IMG/VR virus record: IMGVR_UViG_3300021375_001810
Origin: a virus
Direction: 5' to 3' (one strand)
Length of the DNA stretch: 64,000 nt
Part shown: positions 6,224 to 40,015 of the stretch, one piece after another
How positions within the stretch are numbered: position 1 is the first letter of the stretch
Layout of the letters: each line of letters opens with the position of its first letter
The notes under the pieces: model-generated
Database searches by the model: none
What the model was told of the DNA's origin: nothing
What the model saw: the letters and a program-made list of their open reading frames with translations, nothing else
Translations under genes and position numbers: made by a program

Positions 6224-7138
6224 TTGAAAGAACTATGGGTAGAAAAGTATCGTCCTAAGACGATAGACGGTTATGTGTTTCGTGACGAGGCACAACGCAA
6301 TCAAGTAAAAACTTGGATTAAAGAAAAAACTATTCCACATTTGCTGTTTAGTGGTAATGCAGGCATTGGTAAAACTACACTTGCAAAATTACTATTCAAC
6401 GAACTTGAAATACAAGAATTAGATATTCTTGAAATAAACGCATCGCGAACAAACTCAGTAGATGATGTACGTGATAAAATTGTAAACTTTGTACAAATGA
6501 TTCCATTTGGGGAATTTAAGGTTGTATTATTAGATGAGGCTGACTACTTATCTCCAAACGCTCAAGCGGCGTTGCGTGGTGTTATGGAAGAGTATCATAC
6601 TACTGCTCGTTTCATTCTTACTTGTAACTATCCAAATCGTGTTATTCCCGCTTTGCATAGTAGGTGTCAAGGTTTCCACATTGCTAAAATTGACCAAACT
6701 GAGTTCACAGCTCGAGTCGCTGAAATACTTATCACTGAAGGTGTTACTCCTGATTTGGATACGCTAGATACATATGTAAAAGCAACATATCCAGACTTGC
6801 GTAAATGCATTAACACAGTACAAATGAATGTACAAGACAACAGTTTGCTAAAGCCCAATGAAGGCGATACAGGTGAAGCTGACTGGAAACTTGACATGGT
6901 TGAATTGTTTAAGGCAGGTAAAATTCAAGAGGCACGTAAGTTGTTATGTGGTGCTGTACGTCCTGAAGAGATGGAAGAAATTTATCGCTGGTTGTATGAC
7001 AACATTGAACTGTTTGGCGACAATCCGCAACAGGATAGAGCTGTACTTGTAATTAAACAAGGACTAGTAGATCATACACTAGTTGCAGATCCAGAGATTA
7101 ATTTAGCGGCAACACTTATTAGATTGGCTTCTCTTTAA
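6224..7138 (+). CDS. Sliding-clamp loader ATPase subunit (RFC-small / T4 gp44-like)
   Basis: LWVEKYRP, GNAGIGKT Walker A, LDEAD Walker B, SRC motif. Confidence 0.92.
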   Translation: MKELWVEKYRPKTIDGYVFRDEAQRNQVKTWIKEKTIPHLLFSGNAGIGKTTLAKLLFNELEIQELDILEINASRTNSVDDVRDKIVNFVQMIPFGEFKVVLLDEADYLSPNAQAALRGVMEEYHTTARFILTCNYPNRVIPALHSRCQGFHIAKIDQTEFTARVAEILITEGVTPDLDTLDTYVKATYPDLRKCINTVQMNVQDNSLLKPNEGDTGEADWKLDMVELFKAGKIQEARKLLCGAVRPEEMEEIYRWLYDNIELFGDNPQQDRAVLVIKQGLVDHTLVADPEINLAATLIRLASL

Positions 7139-27270: not shown

Positions 27271-29940
27271 TTGAGTTACGTAGACGCACTATTTGATCGC
27301 GACTCTGACATTATCAGAGTTGTCGAACGCAAAGATGGAAAAAGACATTTCCATGAATATCAAGCAAAATATACATTTTACTATAAAGACCCTCGCGGTA
27401 AGTATAAGAGCGTTTATGGCGATCCTTTAAGTCGTATTGTTTGTAAGAATACAAAAGACTTTCGAAAAGAAGTAGCAATTAATCGAGACAAACAACTTTT
27501 TGAAAGCGACATCAATCCTATTTTCCAATGTTTAAGCGAAAACTATCTTAACCAAGATGCTCCTAAACTAAACATTGCTTTCTTTGATATTGAGACAGAC
27601 TTTGATCCAGAGCGTGGATTTGCCGATCCTGCTGATCCATTTATGCCTATTACTTCTATATCTGTATACTTACAGTGGTTAGAAACAATGGTGTGTTTAG
27701 CAGTTCCGCCTAAGACACTTACAATGGAACAAGCTGAAAAAGAACTAGAAGGTATTGATAATGTAATGCTGTTTGAACAAGAAAGTGAAATGATTGATAC
27801 TTTCTTAACACTAATTGAAGATGCTGATATTTTGTCAGGTTGGAACAGTGAAGGTTATGATATTCCGTATACTGTAAACAGAACTAGTCGTGTACTAAGC
27901 AAAGACGACACTAGACGTTTTTGTCTGTGGGGCCAGTTACCTAAAAAACGTGAATATGAAAAGTATGGCAAATCAGCTGTAACCTTTGACCTAATAGGTA
28001 GAGTGCATTTAGATAGTTTAGAATTATATCGTAAATACACATATGAAGAACGACACACATATAGACTTGATGCCATTGGCGAAATCGAAGTTGGTGAAAA
28101 CAAAGTCCCTTATGAAGGCACTTTGGACCAGTTGTACAACAATGACTTTAGAAAGTTCATCGAATACAACATACAAGATACCGCACTACTGGACAAGTTG
28201 GACAAAAAACTAAGATTTATTGATCTTAGTAACGAACTTGCACACGCAAATACTGTTTTGCTACAGACCACAATGGGTGCTGTTGCTGTTACAGAACAAG
28301 CGATTGTAAACGAAGCACATCACAGAGGACTACAAGTTCCTAACAGACCTAAGCGAGATGACGAAAACACACAAGCCGCTGGTGCATATGTAGCATTTCC
28401 GAAAAAAGGATTGCATAAATGGATTGCATCAATGGATTTGAATTCACTGTATCCGTCAGTAATTCGTGCATTGAATATGGCACCCGAAACTATTATTGGA
28501 CAAATACGTCCTGAGATGTCAGATGCTCGTGTACAAGAAGATATGGGCTTAAAGAAAAAGTCGTTTGCAGGAAGTTGGGAAGGACGTTTTAGTACAGAAG
28601 AATATGAAGCAGTCATGGAACAGAAACGTGACGTTGCTCTTACTGTTGACTTTGAAAACGGACAGACTGAAGTGTTTAGTGGTGCTGAACTGTACAAGAT
28701 TATTTTTGACAATAACAATCCATGGATGCTTAGTGCTAATGGTACAATCTTTACAACAGAGTTTGAAGGTGTTATTCCGGGTATTCTTGCAAGATGGTAT
28801 AGTGAACGTAAAGACTTACAAGCACAACTTAAGAAAGCAAAAGATGCCGGTAATGCTGTTGAAACAGAATATTGGGATAAGCGACAGTTAGTTAAAAAGA
28901 TTAACTTAAACAGTTTGTATGGTGCTATTCTTAATCCTGGTTGTAGGTTCTTTGATAAACGTATTGGTCAATCAACAACACTAACAGGTCGTACTATTGT
29001 TAAACACATGAGTGCAGAAGTTAACAAAGTTATTACAGGCACATATGACCATGTTGGTGAAGCAATGATATATGGTGATACTGACTCTTGTTACTTTAGT
29101 GCTTATCCAATCTTAAAAAATGACATTGACGCAGGAAAGATTCCTTGGGATAAAGATAATGTAATTACCCTTATGGATCAGGTGTGCGAAAAAGCAAATA
29201 CAACGTTTGGCGACTTTATGATGAAAGCATTTCATTGTCCAAAGAGCCGTTCAGATGTTATTGCTGCAGGACGTGAAATTATTGCACAGTCTGGGTTATA
29301 TATTACTAAGAAGCGTTATGCGGCATTAGTTATTGACAACGAAGGCTTTAGAACAGATATTGACGGTAAAGCAGGTAAGGTTAAAGCAATGGGCTTAGAC
29401 TTACGTAGATCAGATACACCTGTGTTTATGCAAGAGTTCTTAAGTGAGATATTACTTATGGTACTAACAGACGTACCGCAAGATGAAATACTTGAACGTA
29501 TTACTGTATTTAGAAAAGAATTCAGTGAACGTCCTGGTTGGGAAAAAGGTAGTCCGAAACGTGCAAACAAAGTAGGTCACTATAAGCGATTAGAAGAAAA
29601 GCAAGGTAAGGCAAATATGCCAGGCCATGTACGGGCAAGCATTAACTGGAATACGCTGAAGCGTATGAACGGAGACAAATACTCACAAGAGATTGTTGAC
29701 GGTATGAAAGTTATTGTTTGTAAACTAAAACAAAACCCTTTAGGATATACAAGTGTTGCTTATCCAACTGATGAGCTAAGACTTCCTGAATGGTTTAAGG
29801 ACCTGCCATTTGACGATGCGGCAATGGCAGAAACTATTATTGATAATAAGTTAGACAACTTAATTGGTGTGTTAGATTATCCTTTAGAAGATACTAAACG
29901 TAATAATACATTCAATAGTTTGTTTGACTTCGGAGAATAA
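27271..29940 (+). CDS. Family-B DNA polymerase with 3'-5' exonuclease
   Basis: FDIET, GWNSEGYD, YNIQD, DLNSLYPS, KINLNSLYG, YGDTDS, KKRY; TTG start with SD AGGAG. Confidence 0.97.
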   Translation: MSYVDALFDRDSDIIRVVERKDGKRHFHEYQAKYTFYYKDPRGKYKSVYGDPLSRIVCKNTKDFRKEVAINRDKQLFESDINPIFQCLSENYLNQDAPKLNIAFFDIETDFDPERGFADPADPFMPITSISVYLQWLETMVCLAVPPKTLTMEQAEKELEGIDNVMLFEQESEMIDTFLTLIEDADILSGWNSEGYDIPYTVNRTSRVLSKDDTRRFCLWGQLPKKREYEKYGKSAVTFDLIGRVHLDSLELYRKYTYEERHTYRLDAIGEIEVGENKVPYEGTLDQLYNNDFRKFIEYNIQDTALLDKLDKKLRFIDLSNELAHANTVLLQTTMGAVAVTEQAIVNEAHHRGLQVPNRPKRDDENTQAAGAYVAFPKKGLHKWIASMDLNSLYPSVIRALNMAPETIIGQIRPEMSDARVQEDMGLKKKSFAGSWEGRFSTEEYEAVMEQKRDVALTVDFENGQTEVFSGAELYKIIFDNNNPWMLSANGTIFTTEFEGVIPGILARWYSERKDLQAQLKKAKDAGNAVETEYWDKRQLVKKINLNSLYGAILNPGCRFFDKRIGQSTTLTGRTIVKHMSAEVNKVITGTYDHVGEAMIYGDTDSCYFSAYPILKNDIDAGKIPWDKDNVITLMDQVCEKANTTFGDFMMKAFHCPKSRSDVIAAGREIIAQSGLYITKKRYAALVIDNEGFRTDIDGKAGKVKAMGLDLRRSDTPVFMQEFLSEILLMVLTDVPQDEILERITVFRKEFSERPGWEKGSPKRANKVGHYKRLEEKQGKANMPGHVRASINWNTLKRMNGDKYSQEIVDGMKVIVCKLKQNPLGYTSVAYPTDELRLPEWFKDLPFDDAAMAETIIDNKLDNLIGVLDYPLEDTKRNNTFNSLFDFGE

Positions 29941-29941
29941 A

Positions 29942-30052
29942 ATGAAAGTTAATATACAATTGGAAATAGATACTGACAATAGTCAAGACCTAAATACCAT
30001 TGAAGAATTAATTGCAATGCTAAGACAATTAGCAGAAAATTACGAGGATTAG
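29942..30052 (+). CDS. Small hypothetical protein (36 aa; not in ORF track)
   Basis: MKVNIQLEIDTDNSQDLNTIEELIAMLRQLAENYED; GGAG upstream; fills gap exactly. Confidence 0.55.
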   Translation: MKVNIQLEIDTDNSQDLNTIEELIAMLRQLAENYED

Positions 30053-30054
30053 TT

Positions 30055-30249
30055 ATGGAATGGGTATTAGTATACATCACTCTTACATTTCACGGTCATC
30101 CAATAGCTGAAGAACAGGGTCGTTTTGACTCAATGGTTGAGTGCTTTAAGGCTAGAGAATACTTATCTTTAGAACTAGGTAGTACTGATGGATATTATCC
30201 TGTAGGCTCACAGGCTGTGTGTGTAACAAACTTAAAGGAAATGCACTAA
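30055..30249 (+). CDS. Hypothetical protein
   Basis: 64 aa, MEWVLVYI...F.SM.EC pattern. Confidence 0.55.
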   Translation: MEWVLVYITLTFHGHPIAEEQGRFDSMVECFKAREYLSLELGSTDGYYPVGSQAVCVTNLKEMH

Positions 30250-30665
30250 TGGATAGAGTAGGATTCACATGTAGTACATTTGATTTATTACATGCAGGTC
30301 ATGTACAAATGTTACGTGAAGCAAAAGAACAATGTGATTATCTAATTGTTGGATTGCAAGTTGATCCAAGTATGGACAGACCTGAAAAGAACTGTCCTAT
30401 ACAAACTATTGTTGAACGATATACTCAATTAAAAGCAGTAGGATATGTAGACGAAATCATTCCTTACGGAACTGAACAAGACCTAGAAGATATTTTAAGT
30501 ATGTATACCATACATGTACGTATCCTAGGCGAAGAATATAGAGATAAAGAGTTTACCGGCAGAGATATCTGCAGAAAACGTGATATTGAAATATTCTTTA
30601 ACAAACGAGATCATAGGTTTAGTTCGAGCGACCTACGAAAACGTGTTTCTGACAGACAGAAATAA
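30249..30665 (+). CDS. TagD-like (glycerol-3-phosphate) cytidylyltransferase
   Basis: TFDLLHAGH, CDYLIVGL, YVDEIIPY, RDHRFSSSDLR. Confidence 0.88.
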   Translation: MDRVGFTCSTFDLLHAGHVQMLREAKEQCDYLIVGLQVDPSMDRPEKNCPIQTIVERYTQLKAVGYVDEIIPYGTEQDLEDILSMYTIHVRILGEEYRDKEFTGRDICRKRDIEIFFNKRDHRFSSSDLRKRVSDRQK

Positions 30666-30674
30666 AATTAATGC

Positions 30675-30703
30675 TTGACAAAAACCTAAATATACTTTAT
30701 AAT
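30675..30703 (+). promoter_or_regulatory. Composite promoter TTGACA-N17-TATAAT with late TAAATA in spacer
   Basis: ttgacaaaaacctaaatatactttataat; upstream of clamp-dpdA. Confidence 0.8.
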
Positions 30704-30727
30704 AGAACTTAACATAGGAGAATATAA

Positions 30728-31456
30728 ATGAAAGATATATTACAAGACGTAGTCGCACACACACATGCACTAGGTTTTCTATCACTGGTTAAAGTTAACG
30801 CTGAAACAGAAACGGCTATTGATGCAATGGCAGAAGACAGATCAGTTATTTTAACAGCAACTACACATAACCCTGTATCAGAGTTTATTGGAACGTTTGG
30901 TATGCCTAACTTAGACAAACTAAGTTTGCATTTAAAGAATCCAGAATACAAAGATAACGCAAAACTTGAAGTAGTTCAAGCAGACCGCAATGGCGAAACT
31001 ATCCCAACACACATCCACTTTGAAAATGCAACAGGTGACTTTGAAAATGATTATCGCTTTATGAACAAAGCAATCATTGAAGAAAAACTAAAGACTGTTA
31101 AGTTTAAAGGTGCATCATGGGACGTAACATTTGAACCAAGCATGGCAAGTATTGCACGTATGAAGTTACAAAGTGCTGCACACGCCGAAGAGCCTACATT
31201 TAATGTAACAACTACTGATGGTAATCTTGTGTTTAGTTTTGGTGATGCAAGTACACACGCAGGTAGTTTTATCTTCCAACATGCTGTTGAAGGTGAATTA
31301 AGTCATACTTGGAGTTGGCCTGTAGCACAAGTACAGTCTATCTTAAACTTAGATGGTAATATTACAATGAGTATTTCCAATCAAGGTGCTATGATGATTA
31401 CTGTAGACAGTGGCTTAGCAAAATACGATTACATTTTGCCAGCACAGAGTAAGTAG
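30728..31456 (+). CDS. Probable DNA sliding clamp (gp45/PCNA-like)
   Basis: 242 aa (clamp protomer size), alpha/beta pattern, DAMAEDRSV and C-terminal YDYILPA recall PCNA; PolB and RFC loader in window. Confidence 0.6.
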   Translation: MKDILQDVVAHTHALGFLSLVKVNAETETAIDAMAEDRSVILTATTHNPVSEFIGTFGMPNLDKLSLHLKNPEYKDNAKLEVVQADRNGETIPTHIHFENATGDFENDYRFMNKAIIEEKLKTVKFKGASWDVTFEPSMASIARMKLQSAAHAEEPTFNVTTTDGNLVFSFGDASTHAGSFIFQHAVEGELSHTWSWPVAQVQSILNLDGNITMSISNQGAMMITVDSGLAKYDYILPAQSK

Positions 31457-31459
31457 AAT

Positions 31460-33025
31460 ATGCGTAAAGACTTAACAGCAGAACAAAATGACTATGCACA
31501 TTTTCTTCCAGCATTAAGTGGTTTTTATGCAACGTATGTAGGCAAGCAGAGATTTCTAGATCCTGTAAAAGGTCCATATATTGAAGATGCTCGTATACCT
31601 GCTAATTGGAATAATGGTGTAGAAAGTCTAAACTATCTTAATAAAAAAGAAGGTGCGTTTACATACAAGTGGACACTATATTCAGCAGGTCATGCTGACT
31701 TAGATACAAATAAAATCGTCCCAAAAGAAGATATGGTGCGTAATAGAGACAGAGCAAACACATGGATACTTGGAGACTCAGGTGGTTTCCAAATTGGTAA
31801 AGGTGTTTGGGAAGGAGACTGGAAAGATCCTAACTGTCCAAAGGCACAAAAGAAACGTGACGGTGTTTTACGTTGGATGGATGCATATATGGACTATGGT
31901 ATGGTCCTTGATATTCCAGCCTGGGTAGCACGTTCACCCGAAGGTGCAAAAGCCACTGGCATTAGTACATATGATGAGGCTGTAAAAGCAACACGTATAA
32001 ACAATGACTATTGGATGAAGCATAGAACAGGTGCTTGTAAATTCTTAAATGTATTACAAGGCGAGAATCATGCTGATGCAGAAGATTGGTATCAGCAAAT
32101 GAAAGACTATTGTGATCCTAACATATATCCAGACAAACATTTTAATGGCTGGGCAATGGGTGGTCAGAATATGTGTGATGTACATTTGGTTCTTAAACGT
32201 CTAGTTGCATTGAGATTCGACGGACTACTGGAACAAGGCGTACATGATGTAATGCACTTCTTAGGTACAAGTAAACTAGAATGGGCTACATTACTAACAG
32301 ACATACAAAGAGCTGTTCGTAAGTATCATAACCCAAACTTTATGGTTACATTTGATTGTGCTAGTCCTTTCCTTGCTACAGCAAACGGGCAAGTATACAT
32401 TCAAAACGAAACACCTGATAGAGGTAAGTGGACTTATCGAATGGTGCCTAGTATAGATGATAAAAAATATGCAACTGATACTAGAACATTCCGCGATGCT
32501 GTATTACAAGACGGTATCTTTAAAAACTTTGAAGATAGTCCAGTAACTGACGGTATGCTTGTAAATGATGTATGTTACTATAAGCCCGGTGATCTAAACA
32601 AAATAGGTAAAGAAGGTAAAACATCTTGGGATTCATTTAGTTATGCAATACAAATGGGTCACAATGTATGGAGTCATATCAATGCTGTACAAGAAGCAAA
32701 CAGACAGTATGATGCAGGTATAACTCCTAAGATGTTAGTAGACGAACGTTTTGATAGAGTTTACTTTAAAGACATAGTCGAAGCAATCTTTATGACAGAT
32801 GATAGAGATGAAGCAAATGCAATTATCGAAGAGTTCAGTAAATTTTGGATGAGCATACCTGGTACTAGAGGTGCTATTGGTAAAAAGACTGTAAATTCTA
32901 GTACATATTTTAACGCATTGTTTGATGTAGAAGAATCGTCACAACAAGAAGAATTAGAAGCTGGCGAATATACTGAAGAACAAGAAAGTAAGTTAGGAGA
33001 ACTTGAGGATGAGCAATTACAGTGA
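31460..33025 (+). CDS. dpdA: DNA 7-deazaguanine transglycosylase (TGT fold, DpdA family)
   Basis: ILGDSGGFQ, MVLDIP, NVLQG, GWAMGG, MHFLG, TFDCAS, HN motifs of the TGT barrel; lacks the tRNA-TGT CxCxxC Zn site; folE/queE nearby. Confidence 0.85.
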   Translation: MRKDLTAEQNDYAHFLPALSGFYATYVGKQRFLDPVKGPYIEDARIPANWNNGVESLNYLNKKEGAFTYKWTLYSAGHADLDTNKIVPKEDMVRNRDRANTWILGDSGGFQIGKGVWEGDWKDPNCPKAQKKRDGVLRWMDAYMDYGMVLDIPAWVARSPEGAKATGISTYDEAVKATRINNDYWMKHRTGACKFLNVLQGENHADAEDWYQQMKDYCDPNIYPDKHFNGWAMGGQNMCDVHLVLKRLVALRFDGLLEQGVHDVMHFLGTSKLEWATLLTDIQRAVRKYHNPNFMVTFDCASPFLATANGQVYIQNETPDRGKWTYRMVPSIDDKKYATDTRTFRDAVLQDGIFKNFEDSPVTDGMLVNDVCYYKPGDLNKIGKEGKTSWDSFSYAIQMGHNVWSHINAVQEANRQYDAGITPKMLVDERFDRVYFKDIVEAIFMTDDRDEANAIIEEFSKFWMSIPGTRGAIGKKTVNSSTYFNALFDVEESSQQEELEAGEYTEEQESKLGELEDEQLQ

Positions 33026-33209
33026 CGAACACGAAAAAATAGCGAATCAATTAGATATTTTATATAAGCGTCATAGAGAACTTGACGATAACATAATTAA
33101 TCGTTATAATAAGTTTGCAACCGACACTGAAATTAATATGTTAAAGACCAAAAAGTTATGGTTCAAAGACGAAATATATAGATTAGAAAAGAGGCTGAAA
33201 GAGACATGA
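33009..33209 (+). CDS. DUF465/YdcH-like coiled-coil protein
   Basis: LYKRHRELDDNI...LKTKKLWFKDEI. Confidence 0.65.
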   Translation: MSNYSDEHEKIANQLDILYKRHRELDDNIINRYNKFATDTEINMLKTKKLWFKDEIYRLEKRLKET

Positions 33210-33743: not shown

Positions 33744-34211
33744 ATGCAAGAACGTTATTACGACTACATGGTACGTAGAATGAGAGAGGAAGATAATAAA
33801 ATGGCTGAAGAAAAAGCAATAAATAATGCACAAAAGAGTATATGGGTAACCTTTAGAAAAGAAGGTATTCATAAATATCCGGCGGCACTAGATGACCCAA
33901 AACTTGCAACAGGCGATGACATGGACGTTTCGTTCCTTGGTTATCCTCATCGTCATATTTTCCACTTCAGGGTGCGTATCGAAGTGTTCCATGACGATAG
34001 AGACATCGAATTCATCCAGTTCAAAAGATGGCTCGAAAAGCTCTATAATGATTCCGACGGTGCGGTGCTCGTACTAGATTACAAATCGTGTGAAATGATC
34101 GCAGACGATCTATATTCACAAATTTCAGCAAAGTATCCCGGCCGCTTTGTTGAGATTGATGTCTCCGAAGATGGAGAGAATGGCTGTCAAATCTTTTACC
34201 CAAAACCCTAA
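33744..34211 (+). CDS. QueD/PTPS T-fold paralogue, DpdL-like (putative CDG decarboxylase)
   Basis: EGIH, LGYPHRHIF (LxxxHRHxF instead of QueD CxxxHGH), DRDIEF, SCEMIA, VSEDGENG. Confidence 0.7.
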   Translation: MQERYYDYMVRRMREEDNKMAEEKAINNAQKSIWVTFRKEGIHKYPAALDDPKLATGDDMDVSFLGYPHRHIFHFRVRIEVFHDDRDIEFIQFKRWLEKLYNDSDGAVLVLDYKSCEMIADDLYSQISAKYPGRFVEIDVSEDGENGCQIFYPKP

Positions 34212-34237: not shown

Positions 34238-34447
34238 ATGGCAAAGAACTTTCCGAAAGTTATGGATATCTATGACGATCTTGACAAGTTTCGCGACTAC
34301 TGTCGCTTTGAAGGTAAAGTCTTTAATGAAAAAGACTTATACAAAGAAGGTGCACCTGTATGGGAAGCATATAAAAAATACCAAGGCTGGCTTCGTGCAA
34401 AAGCTCGCAATGCAGGACGTAACAATATAAACAACCGGAGGAACTAA
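34238..34447 (+). CDS. Hypothetical protein
   Basis: 69 aa; AAGGA SD; coupled to glycosyltransferase. Confidence 0.65.
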   Translation: MAKNFPKVMDIYDDLDKFRDYCRFEGKVFNEKDLYKEGAPVWEAYKKYQGWLRAKARNAGRNNINNRRN

Positions 34448-35511
34448 TGACTATCTATATCGTAGACATTGAAGCAGTTGATACACGCTATACTAAACAA
34501 TGGAAAGAACATCTTCCAAAGCAACTGCAACGAGCTACGAATGAAAAAGTAGAAGTTGTTAGTGGTGGAGATACTCCTCAGGCTACAACACCCGGGGCGT
34601 TTCTTAACTTCGGCGGTACAAATGTTTATAAAAGCAAACAGTTAGAAAAAATAGGGGAAATGTTTTGTAACGGAACTATTAATGATGGTGATTATTTCCT
34701 ATACACTGATGCTTGGAATCCTACTGTTATACAACTTCGTTACATGGCAGAACTATTAGGCGTTGATATTTGTGTTGGCGGCTTGTGGCATGCTGGCAGT
34801 TATGATCCACAAGATTTTCTAGGCAGACTTATAGGAGATAAACCTTGGGTCAGACATGCAGAATATTCAATGTTTGAATGTTACGATGACAATTTTTTTG
34901 CAAGTGAATTTCATTGGGATATGTTTGCAGAAACGTTTGCACTCGAAATGGGTGTAGTTGATCAAACTAAAATGAAACGTGTAGGATGGCCTATGGAATA
35001 TCTAAAGAACAGTTTAGATAGTTACAAAGGTATGGAGAAGAAAGATTTAATCTTATTCCCGCATCGAGTTGCTCCTGAAAAACAAGTTGATATTTTTAGA
35101 GACTTAAAAGAACGTTTACCTCAATATGAATTTGTAGTATGTCAAGAACAACAACTTACAAAAAATGAATATCACAATTTACTAGGCGAAGCTAAAATTG
35201 TGTTTAGTGCTAACCTACAAGAAACATTAGGTATTAGTTGGTATGAAGGAGCATTAGTTAATGCTATACCTATGGTGCCAGATAGACTAAGTTACAGTGA
35301 AATGGCACTGCCTGAATTTAAATACGACAGCAAATGGACTGAAGACTTTGATGCATACTTACATCACAAAGACAAAGTCGTTGCCCAAATAGTTGAATAC
35401 ATAGAAAACTATGAGTCTTTCCTTCCAAGTATTGCAAAACAAGTATCTAAACTTAATAAAGAATTCTTTAGCGGTAAAGACTTGTATACGGTGATTAGTA
35501 ATGAACGATGA
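34447..35511 (+). CDS. GT-B (GT4-like) glycosyltransferase
   Basis: FPHRVAPEK, ETLGISWYE (E-x7-E), PMVPDRLSY. Confidence 0.8.
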   Translation: MTIYIVDIEAVDTRYTKQWKEHLPKQLQRATNEKVEVVSGGDTPQATTPGAFLNFGGTNVYKSKQLEKIGEMFCNGTINDGDYFLYTDAWNPTVIQLRYMAELLGVDICVGGLWHAGSYDPQDFLGRLIGDKPWVRHAEYSMFECYDDNFFASEFHWDMFAETFALEMGVVDQTKMKRVGWPMEYLKNSLDSYKGMEKKDLILFPHRVAPEKQVDIFRDLKERLPQYEFVVCQEQQLTKNEYHNLLGEAKIVFSANLQETLGISWYEGALVNAIPMVPDRLSYSEMALPEFKYDSKWTEDFDAYLHHKDKVVAQIVEYIENYESFLPSIAKQVSKLNKEFFSGKDLYTVISNER

Positions 35512-36346: not shown

Positions 36347-36619
36347 ATGATGAGTCAATATAATGATGTTGTTGAAAGGCAAAGAGTGAAATTGGAAGCA
36401 GAAGTTTGGGCTAAACAAGTCAAATCTATACATGCACATACTACAAAAAGTATGTGGTATGAAACTAATCCTGAGGATTTTGAACACGGGCCTGTAACTG
36501 ATGTTGAATACAATAGTGGTGTTATAGAAAGAACACTTGCAAATGGTGACAAAAGAACAATTGGCAAGAGATTAAGTTCAGATGAACTAGTTGATGAATA
36601 TAAAAGGAATTCTGTTTGA
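36347..36619 (+). CDS. Hypothetical protein
   Basis: Start reassigned to ATG 36347 after AAGGA. Confidence 0.6.
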   Translation: MMSQYNDVVERQRVKLEAEVWAKQVKSIHAHTTKSMWYETNPEDFEHGPVTDVEYNSGVIERTLANGDKRTIGKRLSSDELVDEYKRNSV

Positions 36620-37203
36620 AACATACTAATTACTTTAATGGCGACATACAAACATATGACGACATATTTACAGAAGAGCAACTAAATGCAATAGCGGCTG
36701 AAGTTACAACACTGAACTATGGCTATGGAAGTATTGATCAAATGTCATTACAAAACTTTCAAGCACCTACTGGGATGGTTAACGTAGGTAAAGGTAACGA
36801 CAACTGGTATAAAGTAGTTGAAGACTATTGCCGTAAAAACATTCCGGAACTAAAAGATATTCCAGAAGGCAGGCATCACGTTAATTTATTTGGACCACGT
36901 GAAAATGCAATGTATCACGAAGATTCCGAAGACGGGTGGACTGCTATTTTTTATGCAAACCAGTATTGGGACATAAACGAAGGCGGCGAAACTAAATTTA
37001 TAATGCCCGCTGATATGTTAGATGATAGTAAAGAAATTAAAACGGACACATTAGATTATCCTGTTGTACTTTCAATAGCACCTATACCAGGAAGGTTAGT
37101 GATATTTAAAGGTAACTTACTACATTCAGCAACTGGGTTTAGAAATACATGGCGTTTTACACCTACTATACAATTTTATAAGACCGGAGATAAAGAAGAA
37201 TGA
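36616..37203 (+). CDS. 2OG-Fe(II) oxygenase
   Basis: HED, W...GGET, PGRLVIF...HSA...R. Confidence 0.8.
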   Translation: MKHTNYFNGDIQTYDDIFTEEQLNAIAAEVTTLNYGYGSIDQMSLQNFQAPTGMVNVGKGNDNWYKVVEDYCRKNIPELKDIPEGRHHVNLFGPRENAMYHEDSEDGWTAIFYANQYWDINEGGETKFIMPADMLDDSKEIKTDTLDYPVVLSIAPIPGRLVIFKGNLLHSATGFRNTWRFTPTIQFYKTGDKEE

Positions 37204-37757
37204 AGAAACATTATTACACATGGGGACACGTTGAAAAAATGTGTATCGATATCGCAATGCAGATGCAGAAAGATAACTGGAAGCCAGACTATATTGTAGG
37301 TATTACACGTGGTGGTAATGTGCCTGCTACAATACTGTCGCATATGTTAGGCGTTCGTTGTGAAGCACTTAAAGTAGCATTACGTGATGGAGATAGTCAT
37401 CAGGAAAGCAACTGTTGGATGTCTAGTGATGCGTTTGGTTACGTTGACGAAGAAGAACGTGCTGTAACTAAAAGCCGTTGGGACGTTAACAAACGTAAAA
37501 ATATTTTAATTGTAGACGATATTAACGATACAGGTGCAACACTTGAGTGGATCAAACAAGATTGGCAGGCAAGTTGTTTACCTAACGAAAGTAGTTGGGA
37601 TACTGTATGGAATAAAAATGTAAGATTTGCTACACTAACTGAAAACCTTGCAAGTAATTTTGACGGTGTTAATTATTCGGCACACGAAGTTAACAAAGCA
37701 GATGAAGATATTTGGTTAGTTTATCCTTGGGAAATAGTAGGCACGTATGATGCATGA
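37200..37757 (+). CDS. Purine phosphoribosyltransferase (Gpt-like)
   Basis: IVGITRGG, LIVDDINDTGATL, WLVYPWE. Confidence 0.88.
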   Translation: MKKHYYTWGHVEKMCIDIAMQMQKDNWKPDYIVGITRGGNVPATILSHMLGVRCEALKVALRDGDSHQESNCWMSSDAFGYVDEEERAVTKSRWDVNKRKNILIVDDINDTGATLEWIKQDWQASCLPNESSWDTVWNKNVRFATLTENLASNFDGVNYSAHEVNKADEDIWLVYPWEIVGTYDA

Positions 37758-38373: not shown

Positions 38374-38435
38374 GTAAATTATATTGTACATTGTATTTTA
38401 AACGGCAATCCACTGCCTTAACATCGGAGATTAAA

Positions 38436-39125
38436 ATGGGTAAAGTAAGACAAATTAGAGCAAAGTTAGAAGATGCTGGCATTCGTTATTGGGCGGGTGA
38501 CAACATTTCAAAAGTGCTACAAAAACACGACAAAGAAGAATTAATTAACGAAGCAACTAGAGCTTTTGAAGGTGTGTTAGATGCACTGTTAATTGATCGA
38601 ATTAATGATCCTAACAGCCAAGGTACAGCAAGGCGTCTTGCTAAAATGTACTACAATGAAATTATGGCAGGACGTTATGATCCAGCACCAAGTGCAACAT
38701 CATTTCCAAACGATTCAACAGACCGTTATGAAGGTATGCTAGTAGTGCGTTCGGAACTAAAAAGTATGTGTTCACATCATCACCAGCCAGTAGCAGGTGT
38801 TGCATACATTGGTATTATTGCCGCAGACAAATTAATTGGTCTAAGCAAGTACACACGTATTGCACAGTGGTGTGCTAGACGTGGAACACTACAAGAAGAA
38901 CTTGCAAACGAAATTGCACGTGAAATTCAAAAAGTTACAGATGCAGAACACTTAGGTGTTTATATTCAAGCAACACACGGTTGTTGTGAGAATAGAGGCA
39001 TTATGGCAACTAGCAGTCTTACACAAACAACTGTGTTGCGTGGTGCGTTTAAGGATGACGCTGGTACAAAGAAAGAGTTCTTTGACAATATTAAATTACA
39101 ACAAGAATATGCTTGTGGAAAGTAG
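38436..39125 (+). CDS. folE: GTP cyclohydrolase I
   Basis: SMCSHH, IGLSK, RRGTLQE, HGCCENRG; start reassigned to ATG 38436 after GGAG. Confidence 0.95.
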   Translation: MGKVRQIRAKLEDAGIRYWAGDNISKVLQKHDKEELINEATRAFEGVLDALLIDRINDPNSQGTARRLAKMYYNEIMAGRYDPAPSATSFPNDSTDRYEGMLVVRSELKSMCSHHHQPVAGVAYIGIIAADKLIGLSKYTRIAQWCARRGTLQEELANEIAREIQKVTDAEHLGVYIQATHGCCENRGIMATSSLTQTTVLRGAFKDDAGTKKEFFDNIKLQQEYACGK

Positions 39126-39130
39126 ATAAT

Positions 39131-40015
39131 ATGAAATTAAGATATTCAGAAGCGTTTTATAGCGTACAAGGTGAAGGCAAGTTTGTAGGTGTGCCTAGTG
39201 TATTCCTACGTACATTCGGTTGCAACTTTCGTTGTATGAACTTTGGACTAGAACGTGGGACACCTGCTAGAGCAGACGGTGTAAAACATAATCCCGAAGT
39301 AAAAGAATTACTTGACAGCAATATAATTAACACTGTTGAAAAATTTACAGACTTACCTGTAATACATACAGGCTGTGATACATATGCAAGTATCTATCCA
39401 GAATTTAAAAAGTTTATGATGGATAGAACTGTAGATGAAGTAGTTGAACACTTATTGAGTTTGACTCCTAACGGACAGTGGACATTAGATAATGGACAAG
39501 ATATTCATTTAATATTCACAGGCGGAGAACCTTTGTTAGGGTGGCAAAGATTCTATACAGAGCTATTAGAACACCCGCGTATGAAGGACTTAAAAAATGT
39601 TACATTTGAAACAAATACTTCGCAGAAGTTACGACCTGATTTTAGAGACTATCTTAACAATCAAGACAGATTTGAAGTCACTTGGAGTTGTTCCCCAAAA
39701 CTTAGTGTCAGCGGAGAACGCTGGGAGGATGCTATTAACCCTGATATTGCTAGTGAGTATTTCAGTGTTCTTAATAGTAAACTTTATCTTAAGTTTGTTG
39801 TGGCTGATAGCATTGACGTTGAAGAAGTTAAAAGAGCTGTTGCTGAGTATAGGAGCGCCGGGGTCGAGTGTCCGGTATATCTTATGCCGCTCGGAGGACG
39901 CTCTGAAGAATATAAACTTAACGTTAAAGAAGTGGCTGAATTATGTATGGCGCAAGGATGGAGGTTTACACCAAGACTCCATATCGACCTTTTCGGCAAT
40001 GCATGGGGGACTTAG
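39131..40015 (+). CDS. queE: 7-carboxy-7-deazaguanine synthase (radical SAM)
   Basis: FYSVQGEG, FLRTFGCNFRC...GCDT, TGGEP, FETN, SPKL, RLH. Confidence 0.9.
   Translation: MKLRYSEAFYSVQGEGKFVGVPSVFLRTFGCNFRCMNFGLERGTPARADGVKHNPEVKELLDSNIINTVEKFTDLPVIHTGCDTYASIYPEFKKFMMDRTVDEVVEHLLSLTPNGQWTLDNGQDIHLIFTGGEPLLGWQRFYTELLEHPRMKDLKNVTFETNTSQKLRPDFRDYLNNQDRFEVTWSCSPKLSVSGERWEDAINPDIASEYFSVLNSKLYLKFVVADSIDVEEVKRAVAEYRSAGVECPVYLMPLGGRSEEYKLNVKEVAELCMAQGWRFTPRLHIDLFGNAWGT

Follow-up and report, generated by a model that had tools for sequence, protein, structure and literature searches.

A DpdA-like transglycosylase and the DNA polymerase of a marine jumbo phage share a putative clamp-binding peptide

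Introduction

Whether an enzyme that exchanges guanine for 7-deazaguanine in phage DNA could be held at the replication machinery of the phage encoding it is the question raised by a locus in the IMG/VR virus record IMGVR_UViG_3300021375_001810, of which a stretch of 64,000 nucleotides (nt), referred to as the window, was analyzed. The window contains the replication module of a jumbo phage of marine origin that is related to Pseudomonas phage PA5oct. Encoded in it are a family B DNA polymerase (PolB), a sliding clamp protomer of 242 amino acids (aa) and, directly behind the clamp gene, a 521-aa protein showing the fold of tRNA-guanine transglycosylases (TGT) and considered here as a DpdA-like DNA transglycosylase. 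Near their C-termini, the polymerase and the transglycosylase carry almost the same short hydrophobic-acidic peptide.

Insertion of 7-deazaguanine bases by DpdA was described as post-replicative, with no replisome contact named, and the efficiency of the modification ranges from less than 0.1% to complete replacement of G, a variation for which no cause was given (PMC10516641). In full-text searches, no paper linking DpdA to a sliding clamp was found; likewise, these searches returned no use of the name 'DpdA5' and no transglycosylase described for jumbo phages of this group. Based on sequence comparison and structure modelling, it is proposed, with a probability of about 0.72, that the DpdA-like enzyme and PolB would both dock on the phage clamp by means of the shared peptide and that base exchange would thereby be coupled to the replication machinery.

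Results

The clamp gene is located between the polymerase and the transglycosylase genes

The nearest sequence matches of the window's PolB in the PDB are the gp43 polymerases of RB69 and T4 (E-value 6.9e-62). Its translation (27271-29940) closes with ...NNTFNSLFDFGE and thus places the peptide FNSLFD at the very end of the protein (Table 1). In RB69, gp43 attaches by its C-terminal tail to the gp45 clamp, where the tail occupies a hydrophobic pocket (PDB 1b8h; PMC3012046), and the PolB tail of the window is therefore regarded, by homology, as a putative clamp anchor. PolB orthologues in 216 related loci carry a peptide of the same type, located 1-9 residues from the C-terminus.

The 242-aa protein was recognized as a sliding clamp protomer by its predicted structure. 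Its top Foldseek matches in the PDB are all PCNA (E-value 2e-11, TM-score 0.66-0.70), and the AlphaFold2 (AF2) model consists of two repeated strand-helix units joined by a connector (approximately residues 120-132) predicted at lower confidence, corresponding to the two similar domains and the interdomain connector loop of PCNA and gp45. Three copies modelled together reached a mean predicted local distance difference test (pLDDT) value of 91. Furthermore, homologues of this protein in the phages PAC2 and Phosso are annotated as PCNA or beta clamp. Searches with its sequence gave no match in Pfam, NCBIfam, PADLOC or the PDB (phmmer), and PHROGs returned only the unnamed phrog_12062.

The gene for the 521-aa protein follows the clamp gene after a gap of 3 nt (clamp gene end 31456, start of the next gene 31460), and no terminator-like site was found between the two. 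A complete match to the sigma-70 promoter consensus precedes the pair, and an AGGAG ribosome-binding site is present ahead of the clamp ATG at 30728.

A conserved peptide in an otherwise variable tail

The catalytic domain of the 521-aa protein ends at approximately residue 468, and the peptide FNALFD begins about 15 residues further, at residue 484, where the translation of the open reading frame (ORF) reads ...SSTYFNALFDVEE. The 32 residues located C-terminal of the peptide comprise 13 acidic residues and a single basic one. Within the acidic amphipathic helix near the end of the tail, L512 and L515 are conserved in at least 90% of the sequences; this helix lies outside the predicted clamp interface described below.

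Within the 64-kb window, PolB and the 521-aa protein are the only products of real ORFs that match the strict pattern F..LF[DE], a third match being located in an antisense ORF inside dpdA. These two matches are not significant when taken alone, since about 0.3 are expected from composition. Unlike the two matches, the conservation of the motif is significant. In an alignment of 44 sequences, F488 shows no exchange, and conservation reaches at least 90% at F484 and L487. Moreover, the relaxed pattern [FYW]xx[LMF]F was observed in 26 of 92 tails, taken from full-length representatives of separate 50%-identity clusters, compared to 4.7 +/- 2.0 in shuffled tails (maximum 11 in 1000 shufflings), and in the globular part of the protein only 2.4% of equal-size windows contain it. 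Homologues sharing 30-60% identity keep the peptide while the flanking tail diverges. Tails of more divergent representatives are otherwise unalignable, and most of them contain an [FY]xxLF[DE]-like peptide, often at the extreme C-terminus and sometimes in two copies; some close relatives end directly after the motif, the acidic tail having been lost. The peptide thus shows the features of a short linear motif, namely location in a disordered region, conservation amid variable flanks and occurrence in more than one putative clamp client, PolB having it as well in about 200 loci. In sequence, it resembles the LF peptides of the gp43 type and of the beta-clamp type.

These results agree with a sequence-only reading of the window, made earlier without database searches, which had placed one peptide at the end of PolB and the other behind a TGT barrel in an acidic, likely disordered tail, and had noted that dpdA starts 3 nt after a probable clamp gene under one promoter. 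Translation established both peptides at the positions listed in Table 1, the AF2 model showed the barrel and the disorder of the tail, and the short gap and the upstream promoter match were found as described.

Predicted complex of clamp and tail peptide

Three copies of the clamp were modelled together with residues 462-521 of the DpdA-like protein. An ipSAE score of 0.74 was obtained, compared to 0.18 for the best control and 0.00 for the control in which the clamp was replaced. Of 80 solved complexes, 58 attained this mark, as did 2 of 110 mismatched pairs. The predicted interface comprises residues 476-492 of the DpdA-like protein and clamp residues 37-41, 122-129 (connector loop), 196-198, 219-221 and 236-242 (C-terminal LPA tail), which in the model is the equivalent of the pocket that accommodates PCNA-interacting protein (PIP) boxes. 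The runs agree in at least 61% of the contacts, with a partner pLDDT of at least 49. The peptide would be expected to act like a PIP box, as the model puts it in the equivalent pocket, and binding of the DpdA peptide to the clamp is considered likely.

Co-variation of the clamp pocket with both client peptides

In total, 207 loci comprising all three genes, grouped into 36 rough clusters, were compared. Results are reported for clusters and clades, since counts of FF and LF peptides per locus overstate independence. Clamp residue 221 is alanine in most loci and leucine in six loci belonging to four clusters (L005, L090, L181, L231, L239 and L249). Exactly these six loci carry xxxFF, not xxxLF, in both PolB and the DpdA-like protein. 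In locus L006, the clamp has M221, PolB ends with an FF peptide, and the enzyme carries one FF and one LF peptide. Furthermore, in a clade consisting of L094, L095, L185 and L186, both clients have V or I for F at position -4, and the clamp shows the exchanges I41T and W197L as well as deletion of G220; the clamps of L094 and L095 additionally carry P238M. In the complex model, the motif touches clamp residues 221 and 41, and residue 197 is flanked by the contacts 196 and 198. From a visual reading of its tails alone, L188 seems to be a further member of the V/I clade.

A modelled complex of the clamp trimer (30728..31456) with the tail, together with conservation and co-variation of the motif in DpdA and PolB orthologues, were the in silico checks that the sequence-only reading had suggested. 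The model placed the motif in the PIP-type pocket, and conservation was found along with co-variation in two clades. The same reading had named findings that could have overturned the idea, i.e., a 242-aa protein lacking the clamp fold or a motif that is buried or unconserved in DpdA. Each of these was checked in silico: the protein has a clamp fold, and the motif is exposed in a disordered tail and conserved beyond its surroundings. None of the checks refuted the idea.

Conservation of gene order and distribution of the module

The order PolB, clamp, zero to two small ORFs and DpdA is kept in about 200 viral contigs, as deduced from three IMG/VR scans and contig look-ups. Profile matches were obtained for PolB in 216 loci, for the clamp in 236 and for the DpdA-like protein in 241, and in most related loci the clamp gene is located between the two client genes. 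A megablast search of the region against cultured phages gave no match. At the protein level, cultured phages with a relative of the 521-aa protein were limited to the PA5oct-like jumbo phages of Pseudomonas, one jumbo phage of Vibrio and Sinorhizobium phage Phosso, and relatives of the clamp reach Atu_ph07, SCTP-2 and Rak2-like phages. In metagenomes, more than 7,700 proteins match the 521-aa family, all of them labelled hypothetical, with 976 representatives of 50%-identity clusters.

PA5oct carries the module as gp311/313 (PolB), gp314 (clamp), gp316 (enzyme) and gp322 (QueE). Its DNA resists restriction enzymes cutting at G-containing sites; a modified G was inferred from this resistance, and QueE and PTPS genes were noted with no transglycosylase named (preprint, PMC12191111). 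The PolB gene of PA5oct is split by an intein or a homing-endonuclease insertion (L003/L088 2614-7840). Its gp314 clamp orthologue (L088 7921-8667) is annotated as 'structural protein' based on electrospray ionization tandem mass spectrometry (ESI-MS/MS), which is odd for a replication clamp. In locus L007 (5744-9493), the exonuclease and polymerase parts of PolB are called as two ORFs, and the clamp is likewise divided into ORFs of 82 aa and 168 aa, possibly due to a frameshift or an assembly error.

A natural negative control is provided by the homologues P0229 and P0237, which have no tail and are encoded in integrase-flanked bacterial islands with neither PolB nor clamp nearby. In the small bacterial islands with tail-less homologues (L173 8367-11419, L174 7343-10360), the neighbour in each case is the gene of an unknown 502-535-aa protein. 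This neighbour is adjoined by a 222-aa gene in L174; in L173, a 310-aa gene follows about 400 bp further upstream, and DUF6626 genes are located nearby. The L173 and L174 islands may represent a bacterial DNA-modification or defence module. Upstream of the Phosso homologue, a 240-aa gene annotated as 'virion structural protein' was considered as a second clamp and rejected based on BLAST.

Fold and family of the 521-aa protein

The AF2 model of the 521-aa protein shows the TIM-barrel fold of TGT enzymes. Foldseek matched it to TGT with a probability of 1.0 (E-value 6.8e-7), and comparison by VIA gave Z 18.0 for 2ash_B (root-mean-square deviation 4.4 A, 306 residues aligned) and Z 17.7 for the archaeosine TGT 1j2b_A (4.8 A, 296 residues aligned). 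In TGTs and DpdA, three Asp residues acting in general acid/base catalysis, base recognition and as the nucleophile are invariant (PMC10164549). Among 49 divergent homologues of the window's protein, exactly three Asp residues are invariant, namely D106 (in DSGGFQ), D151 and D299 (in FDCASP), and they appear to correspond to the TGT/DpdA triad (Asp95, Asp130, Asp256) in number and order, as judged along the sequence. No clear zinc-site pattern CxCxxC...H can be made out in the protein, and conservation was noted for C372 and H401. Moreover, the gene co-occurs with 7-deazaguanine synthesis genes in the window, and the restriction resistance of PA5oct DNA suggests modified G in a phage carrying the same module.

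A profile of the family detected no solved TGT among PDB sequences, the single match being a chance one (E-value 0.3), and a scan of the whole PA5oct record with PF01702 found nothing. Membership in DpdA3, the subfamily showing complete G replacement (PMC10516641), was considered and rejected: the family hidden Markov model (HMM) finds nothing in CP220 or phiST at E-values up to 1, and the Pfam TGT model finds nothing in these phages either. Comparison by hhalign to phiST gp042, which is taken as the DpdA3 protein CGPG_00065 by inference from gene order and TGT-like motifs, showed only marginal similarity, with a probability of 65 over 82 columns only. The two proteins also differ in length (521 aa vs 260 aa), and gp042 is without the tail motif. 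Hence, the designation as DpdA given by the sequence-only reading holds in part: the TGT fold, the Asp triad and the gene context support it, while sequence models do not recognize the protein and it does not belong to the complete-replacement subfamily.

Features of the window and the 7-deazaguanine pathway

Coordinates of the features discussed are compiled in Table 1.

Table 1. Features of the 64,000-nt window, with positions counted from its first letter and the basis of each assignment
Feature	Position	Strand	Basis
Clamp-loader AAA+ subunit, RFC/gp44-like	6224..7138	+	Pfam AAA, DNA_pol3_delta2, Rad17
Family B DNA polymerase, T4/RB69 gp43 type, 889 aa	27271..29940	+	Pfam DNA_pol_B and DNA_pol_B_exo1; phrog_262 2.8e-198
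PolB C-terminal peptide FNSLFD (F881-D886), putative clamp-binding motif	29911..29928	+	Translation; three residues (FGE), then stop
Sigma-70-like promoter match TTGACA-17-TATAAT, 12/12, upstream of the clamp-dpdA pair	30675..30703	+	Consensus match only
PCNA-type sliding clamp protomer, 242 aa	30728..31456	+	AF2 pLDDT 92.8; Foldseek PDB
TGT-fold DpdA-like DNA transglycosylase (candidate), 521 aa	31460..33025	+	AF2 pLDDT 90.3; Foldseek; VIA; no sequence model recognizes the subfamily
Disordered acidic C-terminal tail, residues 471-521	32870..33025	+	pLDDT <50 for residues 471-502; tails of homologues differ in length and sequence
Peptide FNALFD (F484-D489), putative clamp-binding motif of the DpdA-like protein	32909..32926	+	Conservation, shuffle enrichment, predicted contacts
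Second conserved tail element, acidic amphipathic helix, residues 506-520	32975..33019	+	pLDDT about 57-71; type E-x-x-L-x-x-L-E
DpdL-like T-fold protein, predicted 7-carboxy-7-deazaguanine decarboxylase	33744..34211	+	34% identity, E 1e-19, to phiST gp040; LxxxHRHxF
GTP cyclohydrolase I (FolE), first step of 7-deazaguanine synthesis	38391..39125	+	Pfam PF01227 2.3e-38; NCBIfam FolE 1.4e-40, below curated cut-off
Divergent QueE-like radical-SAM protein (7-carboxy-7-deazaguanine synthase)	39113..40015	+	Five NCBIfam QueE models, E 4.5e-13 to 5e-7, all below cut-offs

Downstream of the transglycosylase gene, the window encodes candidates for several steps of 7-deazaguanine synthesis. The DpdL-like protein shows the motif LxxxHRHxF, which is the DpdL signature (PMC10516641). 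The PA5oct orthologue of the QueE-like protein is annotated as QueE, and the same pathway module is present in PA5oct and in the related locus L002. The scanned ORFs of the window did not include a QueC. Because FolE, QueE and DpdL are present and QueC was not found among these ORFs, the sequence data suggest that the inserted base is probably 7-deazaguanine itself (dDG-type) or a derivative thereof and not a preQ0-type base.

Further genes in the vicinity may be related to base modification. An RfaE/TagD-like cytidylyltransferase (30219-30665, +) is encoded between PolB and the clamp, and a GT1-like glycosyltransferase lead, deduced from Atlas features only, is located close downstream of the DpdA-like gene (34447-35511, +); a gene of similar length occupies the glycosyltransferase position in PA5oct (gp317) and L002. 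The product of a gene at 36616-37203 (+) gave a weak match to 2-oxoglutarate-Fe(II) oxygenases. Glycosyltransferase, cytidylyltransferase and oxygenase might further decorate the modified base. Furthermore, a xanthine/hypoxanthine-guanine phosphoribosyltransferase-like gene (37200-37757, +), which recurs in the corresponding module of L002, PA5oct (gp321) and phiST (gp064), could serve in salvage of the guanine freed by base exchange. A second sigma-70-like promoter match (11/12) is located at 33082-33110 (+) inside a DUF465 ORF, upstream of a 173-aa gene and the DpdL and glycosyltransferase genes.

Discussion

Proposed mechanism

According to the proposed mechanism, the phage clamp loader would load the clamp, and each peptide would enter the hydrophobic pocket that a protomer forms between its C-terminal LPA tail and its interdomain connector loop, with polymerase and transglycosylase occupying different protomers. 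Alternatively, the transglycosylase could be held after the polymerase has left, or on clamps remaining on finished DNA. The tethered enzyme would take DNA as its substrate and swap guanine for 7-deazaguanine in freshly made duplex DNA, presumably in a processive manner behind the fork. Such a tether would raise local concentration and processivity and limit the reaction to DNA bearing the phage clamp; extent or selectivity of the modification would presumably gain, and clamp-free host DNA would be left alone. Tether, clamp pocket and polymerase tail would have evolved in concert. Replication-coupled, near-complete and phage-selective modification by a clamp-held, sequence-unspecific DpdA-like enzyme is put forward only tentatively as the outcome, at somewhat less than even odds.

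Weighing of the proposal

Several observations weigh against docking of both proteins on the clamp or against its coupling to base exchange. The 521-aa protein found no match in Pfam TGT (PF01702), NCBIfam, PHROGs, PADLOC or by phmmer in the PDB, and it qualifies as a candidate DpdA only by its predicted fold, the invariant Asp triad and the gene context. Its peptide deviates from the canonical PIP consensus Q-x-x-[LIM]-x-x-aromatic-aromatic (PMC3012046), as it contains no Q and, in most lineages, no aromatic pair. The complex model departs from the calibration of the tool by the use of own alignments and of three clamp copies, and its score may reflect likeness to the many solved PCNA-peptide complexes and not binding of this particular pair. 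Co-variation amounts to two clade-level events and hence to few independent ones, and exceptions occur: in L229 and L237, PolB with FF and DpdA with LF are combined with a V221 clamp, and several DpdA proteins have FF along with A221 clamps. In Phosso, the gene of the homologue (L089 6989-8638) is located beside primase and DnaB-like helicase genes with the clamp about 174 kb away, and the protein ends with ...VEGLF, a minimal form of the peptide. Finally, enzymes of one sub-clade (L209, L217, L233, L246, L247) end with ...GMNADNN.VMDFDEFE or similar and are without the F-x-x-L-F peptide. In L217, L233, L246 and L247, a clamp was found and PolB retains its own peptide; L209 shows neither gene. 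The tether may have been lost or replaced in this sub-clade.

An explanation sharing the physical core of the proposal is that the tether is real and serves mainly in targeting, i.e., restriction of the reaction to phage DNA with sparing of host DNA and free guanine, or in timing relative to replication or packaging. It draws on the same binding evidence, and the motif being specific to phage copies and absent from the two bacterial island copies fits to it, as does the short linker between the end of the domain (~468) and the motif (484). The observations fit targeting and processivity alike, and both may hold; as the main role, targeting or timing is considered possible, albeit unlikely. An improbable explanation is that the shared peptide binds another partner in the replisome, such as the single-strand-binding protein (SSB), the helicase/primase or the clamp loader. 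Other contacts within the replisome are likewise made by short C-terminal peptides of hydrophobic-acidic character, SSB tails being an example. The second conserved acidic helix in the DpdA tail and the position of the Phosso gene next to primase and helicase, not the clamp, point in the same direction. On the other side, the C-terminal tail of gp43-type polymerases is the clamp-binding element, the modelled complex has the motif in the PIP-type pocket, with a score of 0.00 for the clamp-replacing control, changes in both peptides go along with changes of the pocket residues 221, 41 and 197, and in most related loci it is the clamp gene that stands between the client genes.

Doubts may also concern the enzyme itself, which could be a tRNA-guanine transglycosylase or have another TGT-fold activity directed neither at DNA nor at 7-deazaguanine, with a tail motif unrelated to modification. 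The failure of any DpdA or TGT sequence model to match would be explained in this way. Nevertheless, the location of the gene inside the replication module, in an order conserved across viral loci, the co-occurrence of FolE, QueE and DpdL, the three invariant Asp residues as in TGT and DpdA, and the G-site restriction resistance of PA5oct DNA render such a role very improbable. Still less credit is given to a coincidental resemblance of two acidic low-complexity tails sharing a hexamer. The single F..LF[DE] pair in 64 kb would be compatible with chance, as calculated above, but the motif keeps its position and sequence over deep divergence while the flanks change, it is more frequent than in shuffled tails or in the globular part, and it co-varies with PolB and the clamp. 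Docking of the DpdA-like enzyme and PolB on the same clamp is therefore preferred.

Relation to known systems

The closest parallel to the proposed docking is the gp43-gp45 pair of T4 and RB69, which shares with the window the gp43-type PolB, a PCNA-fold clamp (trimeric in gp45) and a hydrophobic-acidic peptide at the polymerase C-terminus that would be expected in the clamp pocket. In contrast to T4 and RB69, a second and non-replicative enzyme, the transglycosylase, carries the peptide in the window. PIP-box sequences described for T4 are those of the polymerase and RNase H, with no DNA-modifying enzyme among them (PMC3012046). With bacterial DpdA (bDpdA) and the phage subfamilies DpdA1-4 (PMC6884629, PMC10516641, PMC10164549), the 521-aa protein has in common the TGT fold, the three invariant Asp residues, the linkage to FolE, QueE and DpdL and, as the expected reaction, replacement of G by a 7-deazaguanine in DNA. 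It differs from them in being unmatched by Pfam TGT, NCBIfam and PADLOC models, in its size of ~520 aa, which is twice that of the phiST candidate, and in its tail with the clamp motif. Bacterial DpdA requires the ATPase DpdB (PMC10164549). No DpdB-like partner was seen here.

Recruitment by a clamp is also known from other systems. DNMT1 and UNG2 are eukaryotic PCNA clients acting on DNA bases and represent the same concept, i.e., a DNA-modifying or base-excising enzyme recruited to new DNA by a clamp peptide in a disordered region. They differ from the window's enzyme in family, in chemistry (here TGT-fold exchange) and in setting (here phage counter-defence), and the window's motif is without the Q and the aromatic pair. 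By analogy, clamp-tethered base exchange in a phage would be a variant of a concept known in eukaryotes. The bacterial beta-clamp-binding motif QL[SD]LF is similar in being a pentapeptide ending with L-F, often located at the C-terminus or in a disordered linker and used by several clients of one clamp. Differences to this motif are that the clamp of the window is a two-domain PCNA-type protomer and not a three-domain beta clamp, and that position -4 is aromatic (F or Y) and not Q.

Conclusions

The family of the 521-aa protein represents a large DpdA-like subfamily that is missed by current annotation. Its putative clamp peptide offers a testable mechanism for high modification efficiency and for telling phage from host DNA. 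The module is also present in PA5oct and its relatives, which can be grown on P. aeruginosa PAO1, and the proposal is thus amenable to bench experiments. If the proposal is true, a DNA-hypermodification enzyme would join replication and transcription proteins among the clients of phage sliding clamps, in parallel to the DNA methyltransferase and glycosylases tethered to PCNA in eukaryotes, and the phage replisome would possess an accessory that changes base identity right after synthesis.

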